64,000 nt of DNA from Escherichia coli (lineage in GTDB: Bacteria > Pseudomonadota > Gammaproteobacteria > Enterobacterales > Enterobacteriaceae): the NCBI RefSeq assembly GCF_003019035.1, contig NZ_CP027447.1. One strand, written 5' to 3'. This document shows, piece by piece, positions 205 through 46,502 of this stretch (positions are counted from its first letter, which is position 1; every line of letters begins with the position of its first letter). The notes under the pieces were generated by a model that was given only the letters and a program-made list of their open reading frames with translations, was not told the DNA's origin and did no database searches. Position numbers and translations under genes: made by a program.

Positions 205-396
205 TTATCGTGAGTTTTTAGTACAGATTTTTTTGGATTTACTAATAGTTCCATCATTGCAAACGAATTTGCCATCTGAGGTACAGTGAGAAACACCTCC
301 CTTTTTCCCTGAACAGGGATAATTTCTAGCATAGGTAGTTAGTGGGTTTAATAACAAAGAACATGAAAAAACCACAAAAAATACCTTACCAAGCAT
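205..396 (-). CDS. small Cys-rich protein with signal-peptide-like N-terminus (63 aa), downstream of cI
   Basis: Strong RBS (GGGAGGA) 6 nt before ATG; hydrophobic N-terminus [16 protein letters not shown]; 5 Cys; starts 15 bp after cI stop on the same strand. Confidence 0.45.
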
Positions 397-411: not shown

Positions 412-987
412 CTATTTAACATACTTGACTGTTAAACTTATAATTTTACCAATTATTTCAATGTCTTCTATCTTGCATTCGAACGCTCTGTTTCCACCCT
501 CGACGAAGATTCTTCCACCGGGTAAACGAGTAATGTCACGGATCGTTATTTCACCATCAATACTTATTACCCATTTACCATCACGTATATCATCAAATTC
601 CTTATCACAAATAAATTCAGAATTATTATCTGTGATTACAAAAAGACTCTTGAATGCCGACGGTAGAAATCCCCTATCGAAAATATAAAAACCGTCTTCA
701 CACAAGGCACCATCAGATAATACATATTTAGCAACTTCCATAGTATTTGTATTACCTGAAGTTTGCTTTGAACCATGTCCGGTTGTGAGCCAATTAAGCG
801 AGGTGCCCGTTTCAAGGGCGCATTGGATTACCCATTCTGCTGGGAATGAGTCACGCATGTAGCGTGTGGCGAGTGTACTTTTAGAGATTCCTAAATGATC
901 GCACAACGCCTGTCGAGTTTTGAATCCATAAGCTTCTACCATGCGCTCTATAGCGCCTCGTCCGCCTTTCTCCAAATTCATGGTCAC
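412..987 (-). CDS. cI: CI-type immunity repressor (186-like size, 191 aa)
   Basis: Helix-turn-helix-like segment (TRQALCDHLGISKSTLATRYMRD); divergent from the early operon; position and length as in coliphage 186 cI. Confidence 0.75.
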   Translation of the reverse strand: MTMNLEKGGRGAIERMVEAYGFKTRQALCDHLGISKSTLATRYMRDSFPAEWVIQCALETGTSLNWLTTGHGSKQTSGNTNTMEVAKYVLSDGALCEDGFYIFDRGFLPSAFKSLFVITDNNSEFICDKEFDDIRDGKWVISIDGEITIRDITRLPGGRIFVEGGNRAFECKIEDIEIIGKIISLTVKYVK

Positions 988-1106: not shown

Positions 1107-1328
1107 ATGAGACCTAACATTTCAATCACTCTTACCACGCCTCATGTGACTATTGAACGCTATAGCGAGCTGACAGGGCTGTCCATCGATACCATCAATG
1201 ACATGTTGGCTGACGGACGCCTTATCCGTCACCGTCTGCGCAAAGATAAAAAACGCGAAAAAGTGATGATCAACATAGCAGCCATGACCGTTGATGCGCT
1301 TTCAGAATGCAATCTAAACCTTAATTAG
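1107..1328 (+). CDS. Apl/Cox-like small early regulator (73 aa)
   Basis: First gene of the rightward early operon, opposite cI; small basic protein. Assigned by position, not by a recognised motif. Confidence 0.45.
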
Positions 1329-1354: not shown

Positions 1355-1870
1355 TTGACCATGTTTGATTACCAAGTTTCCAAACATCCACATTTTGATG
1401 AAGCCTGTCGTGCATTCGCACTGCGCCACAACCTGGTGCAACTGGCAGAACGTGCGGGCATGAATGTGCAGATTCTGCGGAACAAGCTGAACCCTGCTCA
1501 ACCTCATTTATTAACCGCACCAGAAATCTGGCTGCTTACCGATCTGACTGAAGATTCAACGTTGGTAGATGGTTTTCTGGCACAGATTCATTGTCTGCCA
1601 TGTGTACCGATTAATGAGGTGGCAAAAGAGAAACTGCCGCATTACGTCATGAGCGCAACTGCAGAGATCGGGCGTGTTGCAGCAGGTGCGGTATCTGGTG
1701 ATGTAAAAACCAGTGCCGGTCGTCGTGATGCTATCAGCAGCATTAACTCTGTAACACGACTGATGGCGCTGGCTGCTGTTTCATTGCAGGCCCGTTTACA
1801 GGCTAATCCTGCGATGGCGAGTGCAGTTGATACCGTGACTGGCCTCGGTGCTTCATTCGGTTTGCTGTGA
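1355..1870 (+). CDS. cII: CII-like lysogeny establishment regulator (171 aa)
   Basis: Second gene after the apl-like gene; length matches 186 CII (~169 aa). Confidence 0.6.
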
Positions 1871-3460: not shown

Positions 3461-4314
3461 GCACCATCCTGAAATGGGCGGGAAATAAAACTGCCATAAT
3501 GTCCGAACTGAAAAAACATCTTCCTGCTGGCCCGCGACTGGTTGAACCTTTCGCGGGTTCCTGTGCTGTGATGATGGAGACGGATTATCCCAGCTATCTG
3601 GTTGCGGATATTAATCCTGATTTAATCAACCTCTATAAAAAGGTTGTCGCTGATTGTGAATCGTTTATATCTCGCGCCAGAGTTTTATTTGAGAACGCAA
3701 ACAGGGAGATGGATTATTACAACATAAGGCAGGAGTTTAATTACTCAACTGAAATTACTGATTTCATGAAAGCGGTATATTTCCTGTATCTCAATCGTCA
3801 CGGTTACCGTGGTTTATGTCGCTATAACAAGAGCGGGCATTTCAACATTCCCTACGGTAATTATAAAAATCCGTATTTCCCTGAAAAAGAAATTCGCGCA
3901 TTTGCAGAGAAAGCCCAGCGGGCAACGTTTATCTGCGCCAGCTTTGATGAAACGCTGGCGATGCTGCAGGTGGGGGATGTGGTGTATTGCGATCCGCCTT
4001 ATGACGGCACGTTTTCCGGTTATCACACTGACGGCTTCACTGAAGATGACCAGTATCATCTGGCATCCGTTCTTGAGCATCGGTCATCAGAAGGACATCC
4101 GGTCATTGTTTCTAACAGTGACACATCCCTGATCCGTTCGCTGTATCGCAATTTTACTCACCACTACATCAAGGCAAAACGCAGCATCGGCGTAGCAGCT
4201 GGTGAGAGTAAATCTGCAACAGAAATCATCGCTGTTTCTGGGGCACGCTGCTGGGTGGGATTTGATCCTTCGCGTGGCGTGGATAGTTCTGCTGTGTACG
4301 AGGTGCGTGTATGA
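3457..4314 (+). CDS. dam: DNA adenine methyltransferase (Dam family)
   Basis: DPPY catalytic motif (VYCDPPYDG) and AdoMet-binding-like EPFAGSCAV; GGAGG RBS; ATGA overlap with upstream gene. The ORF-track start 3397 was rejected as an N-terminal over-extension. Confidence 0.85.
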
Positions 4315-6725
4315 GTCATGACGATATGAGCAACTCTAGCGGCTTTAACGAGGCCGCTGCATCATTTTCATGGAACGGCCCGAAAAAGGCCATTAACCCT
4401 TATCTGGACCCGGCGGAAGTTGCGCCGGAGTCTGCACTTTCAAACCTGATCACTCTGTATGCTGCCGATAACGAGCAGGAACAACTGCGCCGCGAGGCAC
4501 TGAGTGAGCAGGTCTGGGAGCGTTATTTCTTTAATGAATCCCGTGATCCTGTCCAGCGCGAAATGGAGCAGGATAAGCTCATTAGCCGGGCAAAGCTGGC
4601 GCATGAGCAGCAGCGTTTTAATCCAGACATGGTCATTCTGGCTGACGTCAACGCCCAGCCTTCCCATATCAGCAAGCCGCTGATGCAACGTATTGAATAC
4701 TTCAGCAGCCTGGGCAGGCCAAAGGCTTATTCCCGCTATTTGCGTGAGACGATTAAGCCATGTCTGGAACGACTGGAGCATGTACGCGACAGTCAGCTAT
4801 CCACTTCTTTTCGCTTTATGGCAAGCCATGAAGGGCTGGACGGCCTGCTGATCCTGCCTGAAATGAGTCAGGATCAGGTGAAACGCCTGTCTACCCTTGT
4901 CGCTGCGCATATGAGCATGTGTCTTGATGCCGCTTGTGGTGATTTGTACGCCACCGATGATGTTAAGCCAGAAGAAATCCGCAAGACATGGGAAAAGGTG
5001 GCAGCGGAAACCCTACGTTTGGATGTCATCCCGCCTGCGTTTGAGCAACTCCGTCGGAAAAGAAACCGCCGTAAACCAGTGCCCTATGAACTCATTCCGG
5101 GCTCGCTGGCGCGTATGCTGTGCGCCGACTGGTGGTATCGGAAATTGTGGAAGATGCGTTGCGAATGGCGGGAAGAGCAGTTGCGTGCTGTCTGCCTGGT
5201 CAGCAAAAAAGCATCTCCCTATGTCAGCTATGAAGCTGTGATGCATAAACGTGAGCAGCGCCGTAAGTCGCTGGAGTTTTTCCGTTCTCATGAACTGGTG
5301 AACGAAGACGGAGACGCGCTGGATATGGAAGATGTGGTAAACGCCAGCTGCAGCAACCCGGCGCATCGCCGCAATGAGATGATGGCCTGTGTTAAAGGTC
5401 TGGAGCTTATCGCGGAAATGCGCGGTGACTGCGCCGTTTTCTACACCATTACCTGTCCGTCACGTTTCCATTCCACGCTCAATAACGGCAGACCCAACCC
5501 GACCTGGAAAAACGCGACGGTAAGACAAAGCAGCGATTATCTGGTCGGTATGTTTGCTGCATTTCGTAAGGCGATGCACAAAGCCGGGTTGCGCTGGTAT
5601 GGCGTGCGGGTGGCTGAGCCGCATCACGACGGCACAGTTCACTGGCACCTGTTGTGTTTCATGCGCAAAAAAGACCGCCGCGCCATTACTGCATTGTTGC
5701 GTAAGTTTGCTATCCGTGAAGACCGCGAGGAGCTGGGCAATAACACGGGGCCGCGCTTTAAGTCTGAGTTGATTAACCCGCGCAAAGGTACGCCAACAAG
5801 CTACATCGCGAAATACATCAGTAAGAACATTGACGGGCGTGGTCTGGCTGGCGAGATCAGCAAGGAAACGGGGAAATCCCTGCGTGATAATGCTGAATAC
5901 GTTAATGCCTGGGCGTCTCTGCATCGTGTTCAGCAATTCCGCTTCTTTGGCATTCCGGGGCGTCAGGCTTACCGCGAACTGCGATTGCTGGCTGGTCAGG
6001 CGGCAAGGCAACAGGGGGACAAAAAAGCAGGTGCGCCGGTACTGGATAACCCGCGCCTTGATGCAATCCTGGCTGCTGCTGATGCTGGTTGTTTTGCCAC
6101 CTACATCATGAAGCAGGGCGGCGTACTGGTTCCCCGCAAATATCACCTGATCAGAACCGCTTATGAAATCAACGAAGAGCCGACCGCCTATGGCGATCAC
6201 GGCATTCGTATTTATGGCATCTGGTCACCCATTGCAGAGGGCAAGATCTGCACTCATGCAGTGAAGTGGAAAATGGTTCGTAAGGCCGTTGACGTTCAGG
6301 AGGCGGCAGCCGACCAGGGCGCTTGCGCCCCTTGGACTCGTGGCAATAACTGTCCCCTTGCTGAAAATTTGAACCAACAAGGGAAAGACAAATCAGCTGA
6401 TGGGGACTCCAGAACGGATATTACCCGTATGAATGACAAGGAGTTGCACGATTACCTGCACAGTATGAGCAAAAAAGAGCGCCGGGAACTGGCTGCAAGG
6501 TTACGCCAGGTGAAACCGAAACGGCGTAAAGACTACAAACAGCGAATTACAGACCATCAGCGACAGCAGCTCGTCTATGAACTGAAGTCCAGGGGATTTG
6601 ATGGCAGCGAGAAAGAAGTCGATTTGCTCCTTCGCGGCGGCAGTATTCCGTCAGGAGCAGGCCTGCGTATCTTCTATCGGAACCAACGTCTGAAGGAAGA
6701 TGATAAGTGGCGGAACCTGTATTAA
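4311..6725 (+). CDS. replication initiation endonuclease (P2 gpA / 186 A homolog, rolling-circle type)
   Basis: 804-aa protein with HUH-like motif (VHWHLLCF) and downstream tyrosine region (YIAKYISKN); position after dam as in P2-like phages. Confidence 0.85.
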
Positions 6726-6817
6726 TTACGCGGGTTAACAATTCGTGCTCTTAATAATACCAGGCATATCAGGCCGATGAACGTAAAAAAACGTTTTACA
6801 TCAGTAAGATTATTATA

Positions 6818-6837
6818 TACTGTAAATATAAACAGTG
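6818..6837. promoter_or_regulatory. LexA (SOS) box
   Basis: TACTGTAAATATAAACAGTG matches the LexA consensus TACTGTATATATATACAGTA at 17/20 with intact CTGT-N8-ACAG; ~40 bp upstream of the ORF at 6878. Confidence 0.6.
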
Positions 6838-6877
6838 GTTATGTATACAGTATTGTTTTGGTGTCATAGGAGGAAAG

Positions 6878-7066
6878 ATGCAGGACTATTTTTTGGAGTC
6901 TTTGAAGCTCCAGCGCATTGATTTTTTTCTTAAGCTTGTAGCGGCTAGTGAGTGTAGTGATGAAGAGAAGGGGCTGGCTCTGCAGTGGGTTTCTGAATTG
7001 ACTGATGAACTCATGGCAAAAATCAGAAGCCACGAATACAACCGCTCAATGGATGTCATCAGCTGA
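6878..7066 (+). CDS. small SOS-controlled protein (62 aa), possible Tum-like antirepressor N-terminal module
   Basis: Strong RBS AGGAGG before ATG; immediately downstream of the LexA box; followed after 10 bp by the DinI-like ORF. Confidence 0.4.
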   Translation: MQDYFLESLKLQRIDFFLKLVAASECSDEEKGLALQWVSELTDELMAKIRSHEYNRSMDVIS

Positions 7067-7076
7067 GGTGACTTTT

Positions 7077-7310
7077 ATGCGCATTGAAATAATGATCGAT
7101 AAAGAGCAGAAGATTAGCCAGTCTACCCTGGACGCCCTTGAATCCGAGCTTTACCGCAATCTGCGCCCCCTGTATCCCAAAACGGTAATTCGCATTCGCA
7201 AAGGTAGCTCTAACGGTGTGGAACTAACCGGACTGCAACTGGATGAAGAAAGAAAACAAGTGATGAATATTATGCAGAAGGTGTGGGAGGACGACAGCTG
7301 GCTGCATTAA
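7077..7310 (+). CDS. dinI: DinI-family protein (77 aa)
   Basis: MRIEIMIDKEQ...VWEDDSWLH resembles DinI (MRIEVTIAK...WESADDW) in length and at both ends; LexA box upstream. Confidence 0.75.
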   Translation: MRIEIMIDKEQKISQSTLDALESELYRNLRPLYPKTVIRIRKGSSNGVELTGLQLDEERKQVMNIMQKVWEDDSWLH

Positions 7311-7502
7311 GAAACGTTGCCCCCAGGAGGATTCATTCTGATGGGGGCTAGTTTGGGCAATGAGTGAAATAAGGCGTAAGGTGGGCGGTTATTTTGATAA
7401 GTGATCGTCCGCTTTGTGTCAGAAGCAGAAGTGGGAGTGTCTGAGACTCTCTAAAAGTTGATGATTCACTTACAAAACCATTTTCCTGATGGATGCTTAC
7501 AC

Positions 7503-7838
7503 TTACGAATGATCATTCTGTTTAGTCTTCATGAGAAAATCCCGAATCTTTGCCAAGTTTGAATTTTCGGGGATTGAATCCATGTACGGATCACGCTCAA
7601 ACACTAATTGCTCAGATTCAACGAAAGCCTGCCACTCTACTGGGTCTAGCTCAAATCCCATTGCTGTCATATCACTTTCATCTTCCCCCTCGATCCAGTG
7701 GACTAAATAAAACAATTCATCATCAGGAGAATCATCCTCACCATCAACAATATCAACATCGGTTACAGTGATACGTAGGGTGGGATCGATTTTTGAGACA
7801 TAAATTCCTAACTGTGGTATAGGGGGAATATTGTTCAT
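7503..7838 (-). CDS. strongly acidic hypothetical protein (111 aa)
   Basis: 26 Asp/Glu versus 7 Lys/Arg; strong RBS (AAGGAG) on the minus strand; own transcription unit, convergent with dinI and divergent from the KAP NTPase. Confidence 0.55.
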   Translation of the reverse strand: MNNIPPIPQLGIYVSKIDPTLRITVTDVDIVDGEDDSPDDELFYLVHWIEGEDESDMTAMGFELDPVEWQAFVESEQLVFERDPYMDSIPENSNLAKIRDFLMKTKQNDHS

Positions 7839-8217
7839 GGAAACTCCTTTTATTGGTGTTTGCTATTTGAATAAAAATACGCCAAACAGAGTGTTAACTG
7901 TGAATATGGAAAGAATCGTTGTAAGTACCCCGCTTAGGTGTCCCATTCTATTTTAGAGGTTCTCGTGCATATGGATTATGTTATCTGAAAGTTAACTTCC
8001 GCTTCCCGTTCACAGCGAACATTCATCTTTGTAAACCCGTATGATCCGTTTTTCAAGTGGCCATTCAGATACGGATTTTCACTTCCTTGACAGTGCATGA
8101 CTATGCTGCATGAAATCGCATGATCGATTGAGGATCGTCTTTGCTCAGATCCGCCAGAACTGGCGGGCTTTTGCTCATGTCATGCATGTGCATGAAAACC
8201 ACTGCATAAAGCGGGCA

Positions 8218-8236
8218 GGCGTGGCGGGGATACGAG
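8218..8236. other. candidate cos cohesive-end core (P2/186-like)
   Basis: GGCGTGGCGGGGATACGAG then GCGCGCGCT; resembles the P2/186 cohesive-end sequence as I recall it (GGCG[A/T]GGCGGGGAAAGCA..). Recalled from memory, not verified. Confidence 0.3.
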
Positions 8237-8303
8237 CGCGCGCTTATTACTTTGATAGTACTCGGGTTATAATATGGATGACTATCTATCTCGGAGAATG
8301 TGC

Positions 8304-9956
8304 ATGTCATTGGACTATATTAAAGAACAGTTGTCAGACTTTATTTCATCTGCAGAACCTGAGGTAATGGCTATTCAGGGTGAATGGGGGATTGGGAAAA
8401 CCTATACTTGGAATACTTTCTTAAAGGAAAATAAAAATAAGATTGCATTTAATAGATATAGTTACGTCTCTCTTTTTGGTGTTAATTCATTGGACGCATT
8501 AAAATATTCCATCTTTGAAAATACAATTACAAAAGATTTTATTGGAAATAAACCTAATTTAAAAACAGCAACACAAAATACAAAGGGACTTCTTGAATCC
8601 TGCACTAGAAAGACCGCTCGTTTGTTAAAAGAAACACCTGTTGTGAAAAATTTCGCTACGACACTTGAGTCAATGTCATTTATGTCAATTACTAATGTTA
8701 TTGTAGTCATAGATGACTTAGAAAGACGTGGTAAAAATTTAGAAGTGAAAGATGTCTTAGGGTTGGTTTCTTTATTGAAAGAACAAAAAAATTGTAAGGT
8801 GGTTCTTTTACTTAATAATGGGACAAGTGGTATGGATGATTACTCCACTTATAAAGAAAAGGTTATTGATAGAGAGATTACCTATAACCCTACGCCAGAA
8901 GAATGTGCAGCTATAGCATATAAAAATAATTCTGATGTTCATAAATTATTAAGCAAATACTCCATTTCTCTGGGTATTAAAAATATTCGGATACTGAAAA
9001 AAATAGAGCGGTTTTTGCTAGCCTTGTTACCTGCTATTAACGTTAATTTTGATAAAATTGCAAATGAAGTCGCACGCTCCTTAACTTTGTATTGTTGGAG
9101 TCATTACGCATTTACTCCAGATGGAGATGTACCATCATTGGAATATATTAGAAATATGAGAAATATCTATATGCGTGATGAAAAAGAGGATGGAAAAGGA
9201 AAAAAATGGCTTAATACTTTGCTTATATATGGTTATAAAAAAACAAACGAACTTGATGAAGTCCTTATAGACATGGTTAAGCATGGATATATTGATATGA
9301 ACAATTTTCAAAGGCAAGTAAGTCTAAGAAATGATGAACTTATCCGTGATAGTAAGCGAGGTTCACTGTTTGAAGCATGGAAGCTTTTCTATAATTCATT
9401 TGAAGATAACCGAAATCAGGTTGTTGATAATCTATATCAAGCGGTGGTTGGTGGGATAGAGTATGTAACTCCAAGTGACTTGGATAGTGTTGTCGGACTG
9501 TATAGAGATTTAGATGAAAATATTAAAGCAAGTGAATTAATAAGTAAATTTATTAATTACGGCAATGATGCTCTTAAGGAATATGTCCAATCTATTTACA
9601 TGAATGTTCATCCTATAAAAGATGCTGAGTTAAAGTCAAAAATCCAAGATTATTCTATTACTTTAAATCTGGATGGTTCTATAAAGGATGTTCTAATAAA
9701 ATTATCAAGTCAGAATGGTTGGTCTGATAGGCACGAGGAAATATTGGATGCTGCCTCAGAGGATGACTACTATGATTTATTTAAAAAAGTCATTCTTGAA
9801 GGTGGTGATTCAATAATAGCCACTGCTCTTAAGTTTGGTGGGTATAGCAATGGTTCAGATAGAATGAAACGCATCGGAGAAAAAGCGAGAAATGCTTTGA
9901 TAAGAATTGGAAATGAGTCGAAGATTAATAAAATACGTGTTAGACGGTATTTGTAA
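8304..9956 (+). CDS. KAP-family P-loop NTPase (standalone, ~550 aa)
   Basis: Walker A GEWGIGKT (KAP signature GxWGxGK[ST]) and Walker B VIVVIDDLERR; no obvious transmembrane insert; AT-rich; perfect TATAAT at 8268-8273 upstream. ATG 8304 chosen for RBS spacing; the track ORF begins at 8274. Confidence 0.8.
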   Translation: MSLDYIKEQLSDFISSAEPEVMAIQGEWGIGKTYTWNTFLKENKNKIAFNRYSYVSLFGVNSLDALKYSIFENTITKDFIGNKPNLKTATQNTKGLLESCTRKTARLLKETPVVKNFATTLESMSFMSITNVIVVIDDLERRGKNLEVKDVLGLVSLLKEQKNCKVVLLLNNGTSGMDDYSTYKEKVIDREITYNPTPEECAAIAYKNNSDVHKLLSKYSISLGIKNIRILKKIERFLLALLPAINVNFDKIANEVARSLTLYCWSHYAFTPDGDVPSLEYIRNMRNIYMRDEKEDGKGKKWLNTLLIYGYKKTNELDEVLIDMVKHGYIDMNNFQRQVSLRNDELIRDSKRGSLFEAWKLFYNSFEDNRNQVVDNLYQAVVGGIEYVTPSDLDSVVGLYRDLDENIKASELISKFINYGNDALKEYVQSIYMNVHPIKDAELKSKIQDYSITLNLDGSIKDVLIKLSSQNGWSDRHEEILDAASEDDYYDLFKKVILEGGDSIIATALKFGGYSNGSDRMKRIGEKARNALIRIGNESKINKIRVRRYL

Positions 9957-9994
9957 TTTGGGAGGGGGATTTTCATCCCCCCCACACATTTTAT

Positions 9995-11026
9995 CTAATT
10001 CAATGAATAATCTTTGAAGGCTATTATTTTTTTCTTTAGCCAAATATTAACTTCTACAAGTCTTTTTTGTAAAGGAATTAACTCATTTCGCACAAAAACG
10101 CAACCGGCTTTCTCTATATCCCCAAATCCCCCAACATTATTAGGCATTATCCCCATCATTTGTGGCGGTACACGGTGCGCAGCCATCATGTCATCGCGGC
10201 TGACATTTTTGATATTCAGAAACTCATCCTTCGCCGCGACTTCTGACAGAGGAATGATCTGAAGGCCGTCCTTTTTGCCGTTAGGCGAGTACATAAACAG
10301 GTTGCGGAAGTTGCCTGGACCTTTGGCGCTTTTCATCGCGTTGCGGAGATTGTTCACATCCTCCTGATTCTGCGCGGCGTCGGTCATGTACATGATGAAG
10401 CCTGCATGGCTGCCGTTGATGTAATACTTACGGCGGAACAGCGTGGCAGACTCGTTGAGCAGGGCGGATGGAATGGCAGAAAGATAGCCTGGCAGGCCGT
10501 AGATCTCCTGGTTGATGTCCGGTTCCATCAGATGAAAAATGCTGCCTTTCGTGAACTGATACGGCTGGGTTGTCATACCGTATTGCACAAACCAGTAGGT
10601 ATCCAGGTCTAACCCACGTCGGGTGTATTTTGCCAGCGCAGGCTCAAGGGCGATAACTTCACCGAATCGGTTCGTGCGTTTCTCCAGGTAGGCGTTACCA
10701 AATACCAGATAGTCCTGCACAAAACGCGAAAAAGCCTGTTGGCTGAGCAGCGGATGAGGGATATAGGTACTGGTCAGAATGTTGCACTTTACTGCAATCG
10801 GGGAACTGTGATGCACGGCAGCGCGGAAGGTGCGTGCCAGTCCGTCAAAACTTACGGGTGGCTCATACCAGCGATCCGTCTGTACGCATTCCACATAGTC
10901 CAGCAGTTCGCGGCGGTCCAGTACAGGAATGGGATCACCAAAGCTGAAAGCTTCGGCTGAAATTTGATTTTTATGCTGACTCTGTTTCGTCGTCGCAGCG
11001 CGGTTTTTCTTACTCTTTCCCATCAA
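9995..11026 (-). CDS. portal protein (P2 gpQ homolog)
   Basis: 343-aa ORF, leftward, followed by the terminase ATPase gene; P2 Q-P arrangement. Confidence 0.9.
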   Translation of the reverse strand: MMGKSKKNRAATTKQSQHKNQISAEAFSFGDPIPVLDRRELLDYVECVQTDRWYEPPVSFDGLARTFRAAVHHSSPIAVKCNILTSTYIPHPLLSQQAFSRFVQDYLVFGNAYLEKRTNRFGEVIALEPALAKYTRRGLDLDTYWFVQYGMTTQPYQFTKGSIFHLMEPDINQEIYGLPGYLSAIPSALLNESATLFRRKYYINGSHAGFIMYMTDAAQNQEDVNNLRNAMKSAKGPGNFRNLFMYSPNGKKDGLQIIPLSEVAAKDEFLNIKNVSRDDMMAAHRVPPQMMGIMPNNVGGFGDIEKAGCVFVRNELIPLQKRLVEVNIWLKKKIIAFKDYSLN

Positions 11027-18397: not shown

Positions 18398-19251
18398 GTG
18401 ATGGCCCCTATCTTTTGATTGTAATAACTATAATCAGCATGTTCTTCTGTATAAAAAATCTCAAATGCAGACAAGATGTTTGCGTAAAAACTATCCTTGG
18501 ATATAGAGGTTTTTTTATTGATGGATGCCAAAAAGTTTGTTATAAATCTTAATGATGCTGAGAAAAGAAAGTGCCCTTTCACCCAATGATTTATAGATGT
18601 ATTTTCTGGGAATTGAATGTTGTTTTTTTCTGCCAAACCATTAGTAGTAAACGATTCAGGTAGTCTATTGATATATTCATCTATTTTTTTCTTGCATATA
18701 TTGTATGAATTTCTTGATTGCATAAAACGATCACAGGAATCACCAATTACGGAGCATCCTAATTTATTTAAATGATTGTGAATATCTAGTATTATTAAGT
18801 TCTCAATGTTGCTATAGAAGTTAGAAAGCCAATTTCCTACATCTATTTCCTGCATTTTTTTTGTGCAAAAACGGCCTGTGTTTTTGAGTATGTGTGATAT
18901 GATTTTTTCATCAATGATTGTGTTTTCTATTGAATATCCCTTTGTGTAAATAATATTTGTATGCTTTACTATGTTGTCAGAAAAATGGTTTAGATCCGAA
19001 TCTCTGGCAACTATGGCGTTTATTTCTCCTGAGGTTATTTTTTCGATATATGGTTGTAAAGCTTCACATCCACCAACATCTTGAACTTCTACATTAAAAC
19101 GACCATTTTTTTTAAAAATTATTTCCCAAAAAGCAATGTCATCTTCACCTTCAACATAGACCATAATATCAGCATCATAAAATAAACTGATCACATTTTC
19201 CGCTTCATTAGACCAAGAAAAGTTTTCTGCATTAGAATCATTGATTAGCAT
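18394..19251 (-). CDS. Toprim/DUF4435-like protein (AriB-like), 285 aa
   Basis: Toprim-like acidic motifs VYVEGEDD (conserved Glu) and IVARDSD (DxD); overlaps the upstream ATPase gene by 14 bp; very AT-rich. Confidence 0.65.
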   Translation of the reverse strand: MLINDSNAENFSWSNEAENVISLFYDADIMVYVEGEDDIAFWEIIFKKNGRFNVEVQDVGGCEALQPYIEKITSGEINAIVARDSDLNHFSDNIVKHTNIIYTKGYSIENTIIDEKIISHILKNTGRFCTKKMQEIDVGNWLSNFYSNIENLIILDIHNHLNKLGCSVIGDSCDRFMQSRNSYNICKKKIDEYINRLPESFTTNGLAEKNNIQFPENTSINHWVKGHFLFSASLRFITNFLASINKKTSISKDSFYANILSAFEIFYTEEHADYSYYNQKIGAIT

Positions 19252-33776: not shown

Positions 33777-33995
33777 ATGATGATTTGCCCACTGTGTGGA
33801 AGTGCCGCCCATACTCGCAGCAGTTTTCAGGTATCTTCATTGACCAAAGAGCGTTACAACCAGTGCCAGAACATTAACTGCAGCCATACTTTTGTTACCC
33901 ATGAAACTTTTGTTCGTTCGATTGCAACGCCAAAAGAGTCAAATCCGGTTCAGCCGCATCCAATGAAATCAGGACAGGTGGCGCTCTCTCTTTGA
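33777..33995 (+). CDS. ogr: Ogr/Delta-family zinc-finger late transcription activator
   Basis: MMICPLCGSAAHTRSS...CQNINCSHTF matches the Ogr C-x2-C...C-x4-C zinc finger; last phage gene before the host junction. Confidence 0.85.
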   Translation: MMICPLCGSAAHTRSSFQVSSLTKERYNQCQNINCSHTFVTHETFVRSIATPKESNPVQPHPMKSGQVALSL

Positions 33996-34230
33996 CGCTG
34001 CCGCCATTATGTCGCCATCGTTAAAAAACAGTGCTTCTAATATCATGATTTTAAAAGGCATAAATTTTAGGCAACAAAAAACCCACCAACCTTGAACCGA
34101 AATGGCGGGGTTGATGGGCTCCACAAAATGGGGACATCAAAGAAAAGCAGTGGCACTAATTAAGACTGATGCCCTGCGGAAAAGTTCTGCGGTTGTGCAA
34201 AAAAATTTCATTTTCAGGGCAACTTCAGTT

Positions 34231-45770: not shown

Positions 45771-46502
45771 TTACTGTGGGAACCACTGGTCATTGATTTT
45801 CTGATATGTACCGTCAGCTTTAATTGCTGCCAGCGCATTATTCAGTTTTTCCAGCAGAGCTTTGTTATCCGGACGTACAGCGATACCCAGGCCGGTGCCG
45901 AAGTATTGCGGATCGGTCACTTTTTCAGTCGCAACGCCCAGTTGCGGATTGGTTTTCAGCCATTCGTTTACCACTGCGGTGTCACCAAATACGCCATCAA
46001 TACGGCCATTTTTCAGATCGATAAAGGCATTCTGATAACTGTCATAGGAGACAGTTTTCACTTCCGGGTGCTGATCCTGAATATATTTCTGGTGCGTGGT
46101 GCCGTTTTCCATCCCAATACGTTTGCCTTTCAGATCGGCAAACGTTTTGTAGGTATCTTTTTTGGCAATCACGACGGCTGAGTTTTCATAGTAGGGCGTG
46201 GTAAACGATACCTGTTTGCTACGCTCCGGGGTGATATCCATACCGGAGATTACGGCGTCATATTTTCTGAATTTCAGTGACGGGATCAGGCTGTCGAACG
46301 CGTGATTCGTAAAAGTACATTCTGCCTGCATTTGTTTGCACAAGGCTTTTGCCAGATCGATATCAAAGCCGACAATCTCATTATTAGCACCTATAGATTC
46401 AAAGGGTGGATAGGTGGCTGAAACGCCAAAATTGATTTTCTCTGCGGCAGAAGCGCCGAATGCACAGGATGAAAGTAAAGCGGCAAGAACTAACTTTTTC
46501 AT
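45771..46502 (-). CDS. artJ: arginine ABC transporter periplasmic binding protein
   Basis: 243 aa from MKKLVLAALLSS (signal peptide); paralog of artI further along. Confidence 0.9.
   Translation of the reverse strand: MKKLVLAALLSSCAFGASAAEKINFGVSATYPPFESIGANNEIVGFDIDLAKALCKQMQAECTFTNHAFDSLIPSLKFRKYDAVISGMDITPERSKQVSFTTPYYENSAVVIAKKDTYKTFADLKGKRIGMENGTTHQKYIQDQHPEVKTVSYDSYQNAFIDLKNGRIDGVFGDTAVVNEWLKTNPQLGVATEKVTDPQYFGTGLGIAVRPDNKALLEKLNNALAAIKADGTYQKINDQWFPQ

Follow-up and report, generated by a model that had tools for sequence, protein, structure and literature searches.

A predicted tumA/tumB SOS operon with a colicin-type double LexA box in a 186-like prophage of Escherichia coli

The window considered here is a stretch of 64,000 nucleotides from Escherichia coli (assembly GCF_003019035.1, contig NZ_CP027447.1), in which region 6795-7310 is very probably the SOS operon of a Fels-2/DuoHS-type (186-like) prophage of the P2 family. 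In this P2-like genome the module has replication gene A on one side and the portal gene on the other, as does the SOS operon of 186-type phages, and the synteny of gpA, SOS promoter, tumA, (dinI-like gene), cargo and portal gene is common to 186, PSP3, Fels-2 and DuoHS. The features on which the analysis draws are as follows.

412-987, minus strand: cI, 186-type immunity repressor and presumed target of TumA (PF07022 and PF16452)
1107-1328, plus strand: apl, Cox-like excisionase/repressor (PHROG 575, E 6e-31)
1355-1870, plus strand: cII, CII-like activator (PHROG 101, E 3e-57)
4311-6725: replication gene A, directly preceding the SOS module
6795-6800, plus strand: putative -35 hexamer TTTACA, placed by position from the annotated 186 p95 promoter
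6818-6823, plus strand: putative -10 hexamer TACTGT, identical with the left arm of LexA box 1 and placed by likeness to 186 p95
6818-6837: LexA (SOS) box 1, TACTGTAAATATAAACAGTG, site predicted from consensus match and conservation
6833-6852: LexA (SOS) box 2, CAGTGGTTATGTATACAGTA, sharing 5 nt with box 1, site predicted from its colicin-type likeness
6868-6873, plus strand: Shine-Dalgarno sequence AGGAGG of tumA, 4 nt before the ATG at 6878, read from the sequence
6878-7066, plus strand: tumA, 62-aa antirepressor (ORF62), related by profile matches to the N-terminal part of 186 Tum and identical to the DuoHS protein
7077-7310, plus strand: tumB, 77-aa DinI-family protein (ORF77), equivalent of the C-terminal half of 186 Tum by Pfam match and identity to Tum
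7319-7348, plus strand: GC-rich hairpin after tumB, a possible partial terminator at the position of 186 t95a
9995-11026, minus strand: portal gene

The promoter was located by comparison with p95 of phage 186, the geometry being TTTACA, 17 nt and TACTGT here and TTCACA, 18 nt and TACTGT in 186. The putative -35 hexamer recurs at the matching spacing in 76 of 80 related loci, and the putative -10 hexamer is unchanged across an alignment of six divergent phages. A simple sigma-70 promoter scan did not call the SOS promoter because this -10 hexamer is weak. The near-consensus LexA operator that a preliminary description of this DNA had placed upstream of the 62-aa ORF held up well, as 6818-6837 is the sole site in the 64-kb window with three or fewer mismatches to the 20-nt LexA consensus, and none of 100 shuffles yielded any such match. 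Box 1 recurs in 76 of the 80 close relatives, and the pattern TACTG-N10-CAGT lies 38-68 nt upstream of a tumA-type gene in all 16 lineages examined, despite diverged flanks. The predicted operator thus lies over the promoter directly upstream of tumA, the arrangement of 186-type SOS operons. A second CTGT-N8-ACAG, at 46039, was rejected; its centre is rich in G and C, the prophage does not extend to it, and such a site is no more than chance would give.

The 62-aa ORF with its AGGAGG ribosome-binding site was found as first described, and it is labelled "hypothetical protein" in nearly all records. Pairwise BLASTP gave no alignment of ORF62 with 186 Tum, and searches of Pfam, NCBIfam and PADLOC gave no matches, and therefore homology was assessed via a family profile. 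ORF62 is a member of PHROG 698 and did not match PHROG 189, which contains full-length Tum; with neither this match nor a pairwise one, the homology to Tum therefore rests on profiles. The ORF62-family profile matches residues 5-48 of 186 Tum with 35.7 bits, compared to a maximum of 7.3 in 2000 shuffles, and hhalign of the family with Tum gives a probability of 94.9% (E 4.7e-8), the two together placing the homology at Tum residues 3-48, which supports the proposed equivalence of ORF62 to the N-terminal part of Tum at the profile level only, the identity of the two N-terminal parts being only about 16-19%. No split antirepressor other than TumA of PSP3 is said to have been tested, and PSP3 TumA reaches just 4.3 bits with the same profile. 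A search for homologous proteins with ORF62 returned mostly near-identical sequences; for diverse members of the TumA family, the encoding contigs were examined. The AlphaFold2 model of TumA contains helices at residues 2-23 and 28-61 (pLDDT 86.9), and the protein is thus predicted to be a helical hairpin.

The start codon of tumB at 7077 lies 10 nt past the tumA TGA (7064-7066) and has its own ribosome-binding site, GAGGTG, at 7065-7070. The 77-aa ORF described as DinI-like is indeed so: it matches the DinI family PF06183 over its full length (positions 1-63 of 63, E 1.2e-22), and its residues 1-77 match the structure of E. coli DinI (1GHH, E 3.6e-6). The earlier statement that the C-terminal part of 186 tum is DinI-like also proved right, as the 186 record annotates it in this way and TumB is 41% identical to Tum residues 71-145 (E 2e-24). 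With the NCBIfam model for chromosomal dinI (NF007893) TumB scores 43.1 bits, under the 111-bit cut-off, and by this measure it is a phage paralogue and not the host dinI. DinI-family proteins act on RecA filaments, and TumB, as a free DinI-like protein, would most likely modulate RecA filament activity and hence how strong or how long-lasting the SOS signal is, and would not itself be the inducer. In the tum deletion of E. coli HS, tumB and its ribosome-binding site are kept, and TumB is thus insufficient for induction (PMC12055606, PMC11195241).

Homology with the relatives stops at about 7310-7320, and window 7320-9990 is cargo between tumB and the portal gene. The hairpin at 7319-7348 folds with -20.4 kcal/mol (z -2.5) and is not followed by a U-tract; it may function as a partial terminator. 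Another hairpin, at 7055-7072, which spans the tumA stop and the tumB ribosome-binding site and had been flagged by a terminator scan, was considered as a coupling element and rejected, its stability being that of shuffles (z -0.8). RNA folding found no significant structure in the leader RNA at 6830-6885 (z +0.6), and Rfam found no known RNA in the module region. Two antisense ORFs (6839-7033 and 6886-7059, minus strand) and a 30-aa ORF over the promoter (6777-6869) were dismissed as spurious because the signal of selection fits the plus-strand frames.

The 186-like cI/apl/cII arrangement noted in the preliminary description is present, in the gene order of the 186 record. Along its whole length CI shares 33% identity with 186 CI (E 6e-37); it matches the 186 CI structure 2FJR (E 1e-30) and is 98.9% identical to the CI of DuoHS. 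By homology, apl and cII are the lytic side of the 186-type switch, which is derepressed upon inactivation of CI.

The closest known system is DuoHS of E. coli HS, the prophage of the Phollow study (PMC12055606), which is 96-98% identical in nucleotide sequence and occupies the same chromosomal site adjoining rybB/ybjL. Its TumA is 100% identical to that found here and its TumB is identical at 76 of 77 residues; its promoter with the double operator departs from that of the window by no more than a few bases, the centre of box 2 carrying a few substitutions, and different cargo lies between its tumB and portal gene. The primer used for the HS deletion matches window 6866-6880 and 7064-7086 exactly, so that the deleted gene is ORF62. 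A similar picture emerges for Fels-2 of Salmonella LT2 (STM2728 and STM2726.1, the latter also STM2727), whose module is 96.7% nucleotide-identical, with the same two ORFs and the same double box; the TumA of the window is 97% identical to STM2728. The Fels-2 operon is induced by DNA damage, its dinI-like STM2727 rising 5.5- to 15-fold with the LexA regulon upon mutagen treatment, and STM2726-2728 act as one operon (PMC2225428). In its citation of Bunny et al. 2002, PMC3121763 attributes the lethality of a lexA null to Fels-2. Downstream cargo in Fels-2 again differs, and its CI is just 41% identical to the CI here (60% in the N-terminal domain, 25% in the C-terminal domain).

More distant relatives share the plan of the operon and differ in its parts. 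In PSP3, tumA is annotated "similar to 5' end 186 tum; UV induction of prophage" and tumB "similar to dinI and 3' end of 186 tum", and a LexA box overlaps the -10 as it does here, but the box is single, TumA is very divergent and CI is longer (286 aa). The p95-tum operon of 186 lies in the same position after gene A with a LexA box over the -10, and the phage shares with this locus the N-terminal antirepressor part, the DinI-like part and the CI/Apl/CII switch. In 186, however, the two parts are fused in a protein of 146 aa, an internal GTG start also giving the DinI part alone, which according to the 186 record "modulates SOS induction"; the LexA box is single where here it is double, and orf97 follows in the operon in place of the unrelated cargo found here. 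The Gifsy and Fels-1 operons (dinI-gfoA/gftA) likewise couple a LexA-repressed small antirepressor to a dinI homologue, and their repressors are inactivated by binding and not by cleavage, but these are lambdoid phages with the order reversed (dinI first), and their antirepressors and repressors are unrelated to those described here (PMC3121763).

Together with the published genetics, these likenesses suggest how the prophage would be induced. In the uninduced state, LexA on the double operator would cover the -10 and the transcript start, keeping the promoter silent. DNA damage would activate RecA, LexA would cleave itself and the operon would be transcribed; TumA would then bind the 186-type CI stoichiometrically so that CI could no longer hold the lytic promoter, and the prophage would enter lytic growth without cleavage of CI. 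Only for 186 has Tum been shown to bind CI directly and reversibly and so to keep it off its operators (PMC3121763, PMC7708051); there Tum sequesters CI and repression is restored once LexA re-represses tum (PMC7708051). In E. coli HS, deletion of tum and a lexA(Ind-) allele each abolish lysis and virion foci induced by mitomycin C (PMC12055606, PMC11195241). By analogy with this identical protein, the earlier prediction of SOS induction through an antirepressor would hold for the present prophage.

The preliminary description had left it open whether the two ORFs are a real split or a decay product, and only the former stands. Were they remnants of a fused 186-type tum broken by a stop, the prophage would no longer be SOS-inducible, or only its DinI part would work, a view that can appeal to the single 146-aa protein of 186 and to an ORF62 that has no Pfam family and is mostly annotated as hypothetical. 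The single-polypeptide form is indeed absent here, where tumA stops at 7064-7066 and tumB has its own start at 7077, which is the tumA/tumB form. But neither gene is disrupted in any of the 82 related loci, the pN/pS ratios (0.075 for tumA, 0.081 for tumB) indicate purifying selection, and each gene has a Shine-Dalgarno sequence of its own. Standalone genes of 55-75 aa are the sole form of tumA in all 67 representatives, a phmmer search with ORF62 (1.8 billion representatives) found only small standalone proteins and no fused Tum, and in some lineages the DinI gene is missing altogether. The viable phages Fels-2, PSP3, RE2010, SopEphi and DuoHS carry the split form, which was described for Fels-2 and PSP3 by Lemire et al. 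2011 (PMC3121763) and is already annotated as tumA/tumB in the PSP3 record; and in E. coli HS induction is lost when the 62-aa gene is deleted (PMC12055606, PMC11195241). Decay has next to no probability, and is in substance already refuted. It is also very improbable that induction is lambda-like, by RecA-promoted self-cleavage of CI, with the LexA-controlled operon a mere accessory that modulates the SOS response via DinI. The action of DinI-family proteins on RecA filaments would suit such a role, and the C-terminal region of CI has a marginal, partial match to Peptidase_S24, at an E of 0.022 that is below significance; the LexA/S24 peptidase domain of lambda-type autocleaving repressors was not otherwise found in CI. 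Against it, CI has both domains of 186 CI (PF07022 and PF16452) and matches 186 CI structures, which would make it the cognate 186-type repressor without an autocleavage domain. It is Tum, not cleavage, that inactivates 186 CI (PMC7708051, PMC3121763), and in HS deletion of tum alone blocks induction despite a normal SOS response (PMC12055606, PMC11195241).

In the antirepressor-based switch that we prefer, the operator sequence at 6818-6852 consists of two 20-nt boxes with 5 nt in common (CTG-N10-CAGTG-N10-CAG), and by this sequence it is a double overlapping SOS box of the colicin/pesticin type, which is an addition of the present work. A BLAST search of 7.3 Gb aligned window 6813-6859 with the colicin R (pColR cra) and pesticin (pPCP1 pst) promoters at 85-87.5% identity (E 1e-6 to 2e-4), and over these 47 nt the colicin and pesticin promoters carry a near-identical 35-nt unit, TACTGT..ACAGTGGTTAT..TACAGTA. 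To align them, a gap of 12 nt has to be opened between the -35 and the boxes: colicin promoters have their boxes downstream of the -10, whereas here the -35 is 12 nt closer and the -10 is part of box 1 itself, as in 186. Colicin operons are reported to bind two LexA dimers, with very tight repression, undetectable basal expression and late induction (PMC2994835), but colicin/pesticin double boxes control genes other than tumA/tumB and the LexA sites here are predicted ones. We consider it rather unlikely that box 1 alone is the functional operator, with 6833-6852 a non-functional colicin-like leader and regulation as at 186 p95. One box does suffice in 186, PSP3 and other lineages, and box 2 has five mismatches to the 20-nt consensus and a left arm GTG in place of CTG; yet the same non-canonical second box, CAGTG-N10-CAG, occurs in the colicin and pesticin promoters, and two LexA dimers have been reported at boxes of this type (PMC2994835). 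Moreover, 75 of the 80 close relatives have boxes 1 and 2 in register, and both are kept in the diverged MLG42, ST437phi4.1 and SopEphi, three genera of relatives in which the spacer and neighbouring leader have changed. Substitutions in box 2 gather in its centre (6843-6845) and spare the arms. Both boxes are thus probably occupied by LexA. A literature search for double SOS boxes with prophage antirepressors returned no match, Bunny et al. 2002 (J Bacteriol 184:6235) being outside its reach.

The second addition concerns TumA, which is 97-98% identical across phages whose CIs share only 41-56%, and a near-invariant TumA would recognise the conserved N-terminal domain of these diverged repressors. 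It is possible, and we put it forward tentatively, that the Fels-2/DuoHS lineage swapped a single tum box for a colicin-type double operator and that an invariant TumA serves diverged CIs. The double-operator unit may be shared with bacteriocin plasmids through exchange of promoter modules. If this combined reading is true, the threshold of induction would be tighter, later and more all-or-none than that of 186, with the hypervariable centre of box 2 (6843-6845) adjusting it from one prophage variant to another. If TumA reads the conserved N-terminal domain of CI, cross-induction between co-resident heteroimmune P2-like prophages is predicted.

The LexA-repressed tum/dinI-like switch is real and its core mechanism is already published, with an identical copy genetically tested in E. 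coli HS. That the module was published and that its operator is double are the two points missed at first. The core of the switch is not new biology because it has been published and tested on this identical copy; what the present work shows is the anatomy of the sequence, its homologies, its conservation and the purifying selection on it. The gain is a correct annotation for genes that databases label "hypothetical protein" and "DinI-like". The module is found in 1124 of 5426 complete E. coli genomes, or about one in five, and this type of prophage is among the commonest in E. coli, Salmonella and Klebsiella. After DNA damage, of which SOS-triggering antibiotics are one cause, the module sets when such a prophage kills its host and spreads, and the colicin-type double SOS box and the pairing of an invariant TumA with diverged CIs could be modestly useful for understanding induction thresholds and cross-talk between prophages.

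The region 6795–7310 lies inside a P2-family prophage, and its sequence agrees with the preliminary description of a LexA operator followed by an AGGAGG-led 62-aa ORF (tumA) and, 10 nt further on, a DinI-like ORF of 77 aa (tumB). The observation is confirmed, the interpretation placed on it, 186-like SOS induction through an antirepressor, is supported, and the system is known already: it belongs with the 186-like SOS operons of the Fels-2/DuoHS group.

Genes and sites of the SOS region and its surroundings
205–396, minus strand: ORF of 63 aa, rich in Cys, with an N-terminus resembling a signal peptide; follows cI, towards int
412–987, minus strand: cI, 186-type
1107–1328: apl, upstream of the SOS region
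1355–1870: cII, upstream of the SOS region
Upstream of the SOS region: Dam methylase gene
4311–6725: replication gene A, upstream of the SOS region
6795–6800: putative -35 element, TTTACA, 17 nt from TACTGT
6818–6837: LexA box 1, TACTGTAAATATAAACAGTG, read from the sequence
6833–6852: LexA-type box 2, CAGTGGTTATGTATACAGTA, directly after box 1 with 5 nt in common
6868–6873, plus strand: AGGAGG of tumA, 5′ of the ATG
6878–7066, plus strand: tumA, 62 codons, ATG at 6878, TGA at 7064–7066
7077–7310, plus strand: tumB, 77 codons from the ATG at 7077, GAGGTG in front
7503–7838, minus strand: 111-aa protein of unknown function (phrog_17127), cargo island
8274–9956, plus strand: 560-aa KAP-family P-loop NTPase (Pfam PF07693, E 2e-8), cargo island
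9995–11026, minus strand: portal gene, downstream, past the variable island
34073–34151, minus strand: RybB sRNA (Rfam, 104 bits)

Box 1 is the sole site in the 64 kb scanned with three or fewer mismatches to the 20-nt LexA consensus; such a site appeared in 0 of 100 shuffles. The pattern CTGT-N8-ACAG occurs twice in the window, against 0.57 expected; the only other match, CTGTCATAGGAGACAG at 46039–46054 (+), lies outside the prophage, has a GC-rich centre and is probably due to chance. TumB covers the whole Pfam DinI domain (E 1.2e-22) and matches E. coli DinI (PDB ID: 1GHH; E 3.6e-6). Directly 3′ of tumB is a GC-rich hairpin (7319–7348, +; -20.4 kcal/mol, z -2.5) without a U-tract, at the position of the partial terminator t95a of 186, and homology with relatives stops there. 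The stretch from tumB to the portal gene (7320–9990) is a variable cargo island where Fels-2, DuoHS and 813R9 carry other genes; its NTPase has a match in PADLOC to PDC-S49, a candidate defence system (E 4e-25). Judged by synteny with E. coli HS, RybB is flanked by the ogr gene of the prophage (about 33777–33995) and by host ybjL, which puts the right prophage end (attR) next to rybB; the left end (int, attL) is beyond the window. The 63-aa Cys-rich ORF, which may be a lysogenic-conversion gene, is also found in E. coli HS (18494–18685 of the HS locus); in PSP3 another small gene (DUF2511) occupies this place.

At the same genomic position, the 186 GenBank record has p95, a promoter whose -10 (TACTGT) is overlapped by a LexA site, and tum (146 aa), whose expression LexA represses and whose product inhibits DNA binding by CI; shorter products are also given, one of them, from an internal GTG start, corresponding in essence to the DinI-like half alone. 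The proposed alignment with 186 Tum is direct for TumB, which is 41% identical to residues 71–145 (E 2e-24), but TumA gave no alignment by BLASTP, nor any match in Pfam. A phmmer search with TumA alone against 1.84 billion representative proteins found 67 relatives, nearly all standalone proteins of 50–75 aa, and an HMM built from 29 of these plus TumA matches Tum residues 5–48 with 35.7 bits (2000 shuffles of the Tum N-terminus reached at most 7.3 bits); the “tum protein” of a Yersinia phage scores 37.9 bits. Since hhalign also places the family on Tum (residues 3–45 on 3–45, 94.9% probability, E 4.7e-8), profile comparison identifies TumA as homologous to the antirepressor half of Tum, though divergent from it. 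An AlphaFold2 model of TumA is a two-helix hairpin (pLDDT 86.9); no solved structure was found among its relatives.

Whether the two ORFs are a real split or the decay product of a fused tum gene had been left undecided. Both are intact in Fels-2, 813R9 and 80 IMG/VR contigs, 82 related loci in all, with pN/pS, pooled over these loci with the window as reference, of 0.075 for tumA and 0.081 for tumB. Among 5426 complete E. coli genomes, 1124 have the module, as do at least 589 viral contigs, and nucleotide identity over 6700–7400 is 96.7% to Fels-2 and 98% to E. coli phage vB_EcoM-813R9. The split form is also on record: that of PSP3 likens tumA to the 5′ end of 186 tum, citing UV induction of the prophage, and tumB to dinI and the 3′ end of tum, the Fels-2 record notes its second gene as similar to PSP3 TumB, and Lemire et al. 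(PMC3121763) provide a further source. Decay is excluded by this intactness, purifying selection and distribution, together with the genetics described below, and the split is real. Diverse TumA-family genes always lie about 120 nt past gpA in P2-like prophages and occur both with and without a DinI gene after them, so what stays constant is the small antirepressor gene, with DinI as an optional companion. Several P2-like prophages have the TumA-family gene and a LexA box with no DinI-like gene following; some of them continue with ogr/portal or with a GmrSD-type defence gene.

Published experiments bear directly on induction. In 186, Tum sequesters CI, and repression returns after LexA re-represses tum (PMC7708051). 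In Salmonella, a mutagen raises expression of STM2727, the dinI-like gene of Fels-2, 5.5- to 15-fold along with the LexA regulon, and STM2726-2728 act as a single operon (PMC2225428). In the Phollow study of DuoHS, a P2-like prophage of E. coli HS (PMC12055606; preprint PMC11195241), mitomycin C-induced lysis and virion formation were abolished both by an in-frame Δtum, joining start codon to stop codon, and by lexA(Ind-), and the SOS reporter still fired in Δtum (PMC12055606). The junction primer ATAGGAGGAAAGATG|TGAGGTGACTTTTATGCGCATTG matches window positions 6866–6880 and 7064–7086 exactly, so the deleted “tum” is precisely the 62-codon ORF, with tumB and its ribosome-binding site left in place. 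The HS locus has an identical TumA, 76 of 77 residues of TumB and 98.9% of CI; the prophages share the same chromosomal site and 96–98% nucleotide identity outside the cargo island. Deletion of the 62-aa ORF and a lexA(Ind-) background, both suggested as checks in the preliminary description, have thus in effect been carried out with an identical copy, and the outcome is as predicted: induction needs tum and cleavable LexA. The anticipated 186-like cI/apl/cII arrangement is also there. CI carries PF07022 and PF16452, both Pfam domains of 186 CI, is 33% identical to it over the full length (E 6e-37) and matches its crystal structure (PDB ID: 2FJR; E 1e-30); the match to Peptidase_S24 is marginal and partial (E 0.022). 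Autocleavage of CI as in lambda is contradicted by this domain content and by the Δtum phenotype in HS.

TumA is 97–98% identical in 813R9, Kp4860-7, Kp4845-2, RE2010 and Fels-2, whereas their CI repressors are only 41–56% identical to that of the window, with 60–71% in the N-terminal DNA-binding domain and 25–42% in the C-terminal domain. In 186, the Tum N-terminus is very divergent and the CI N-terminal domain only 36% identical. The simplest reading, from a handful of genomes, is that TumA would recognise the N-terminal domain of CI, which fits with an antirepressor that blocks DNA binding; mosaic recombination could instead account for a near-invariant TumA beside diverged repressors. The same pattern suggests that cross-induction between related prophages may be possible.

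The operator itself is double. In a BLAST search of 6808–6862 against plasmids, the matches are on small mobilisable plasmids for colicin, directly 5′ of cra (colicin R), and on Yersinia pestis pPCP1, directly 5′ of pst (pesticin), with 85–87.5% identity over 47 nt, and the whole unit TACTGTA.ATA.A..CAGTGGTT.T.T.TACAGTATT is common to all of these promoters in the alignment. Its spacing from TTTACA would make box 1 itself the -10, as in 186, but the colicin promoters have their boxes after the -10. In 75 of 80 close relatives the two boxes keep their register, and both are retained in three diverged ones (Yersinia MLG42, Klebsiella ST437phi4.1 and SopEphi) with changed spacer and leader; box 1 stands alone in 186, PSP3, ESSI-2, ev015, a Yersinia phage and four further lineages. 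Promoter variation across 73 unique relatives is highest at 6843–6845, the central triplet of box 2, with its arms kept, which could mean tuning of LexA affinity or simply no constraint. Variants include GTA, ACA, GCA, GTG and GCG, among others, and almost no change is seen in the box arms or in box 1. We infer that LexA probably occupies box 2; a non-functional second box is the less likely alternative.

Two points may be new to the literature, the double operator of the colicin type and a TumA that hardly varies next to CI repressors that have diverged; both are modest, and both are testable.
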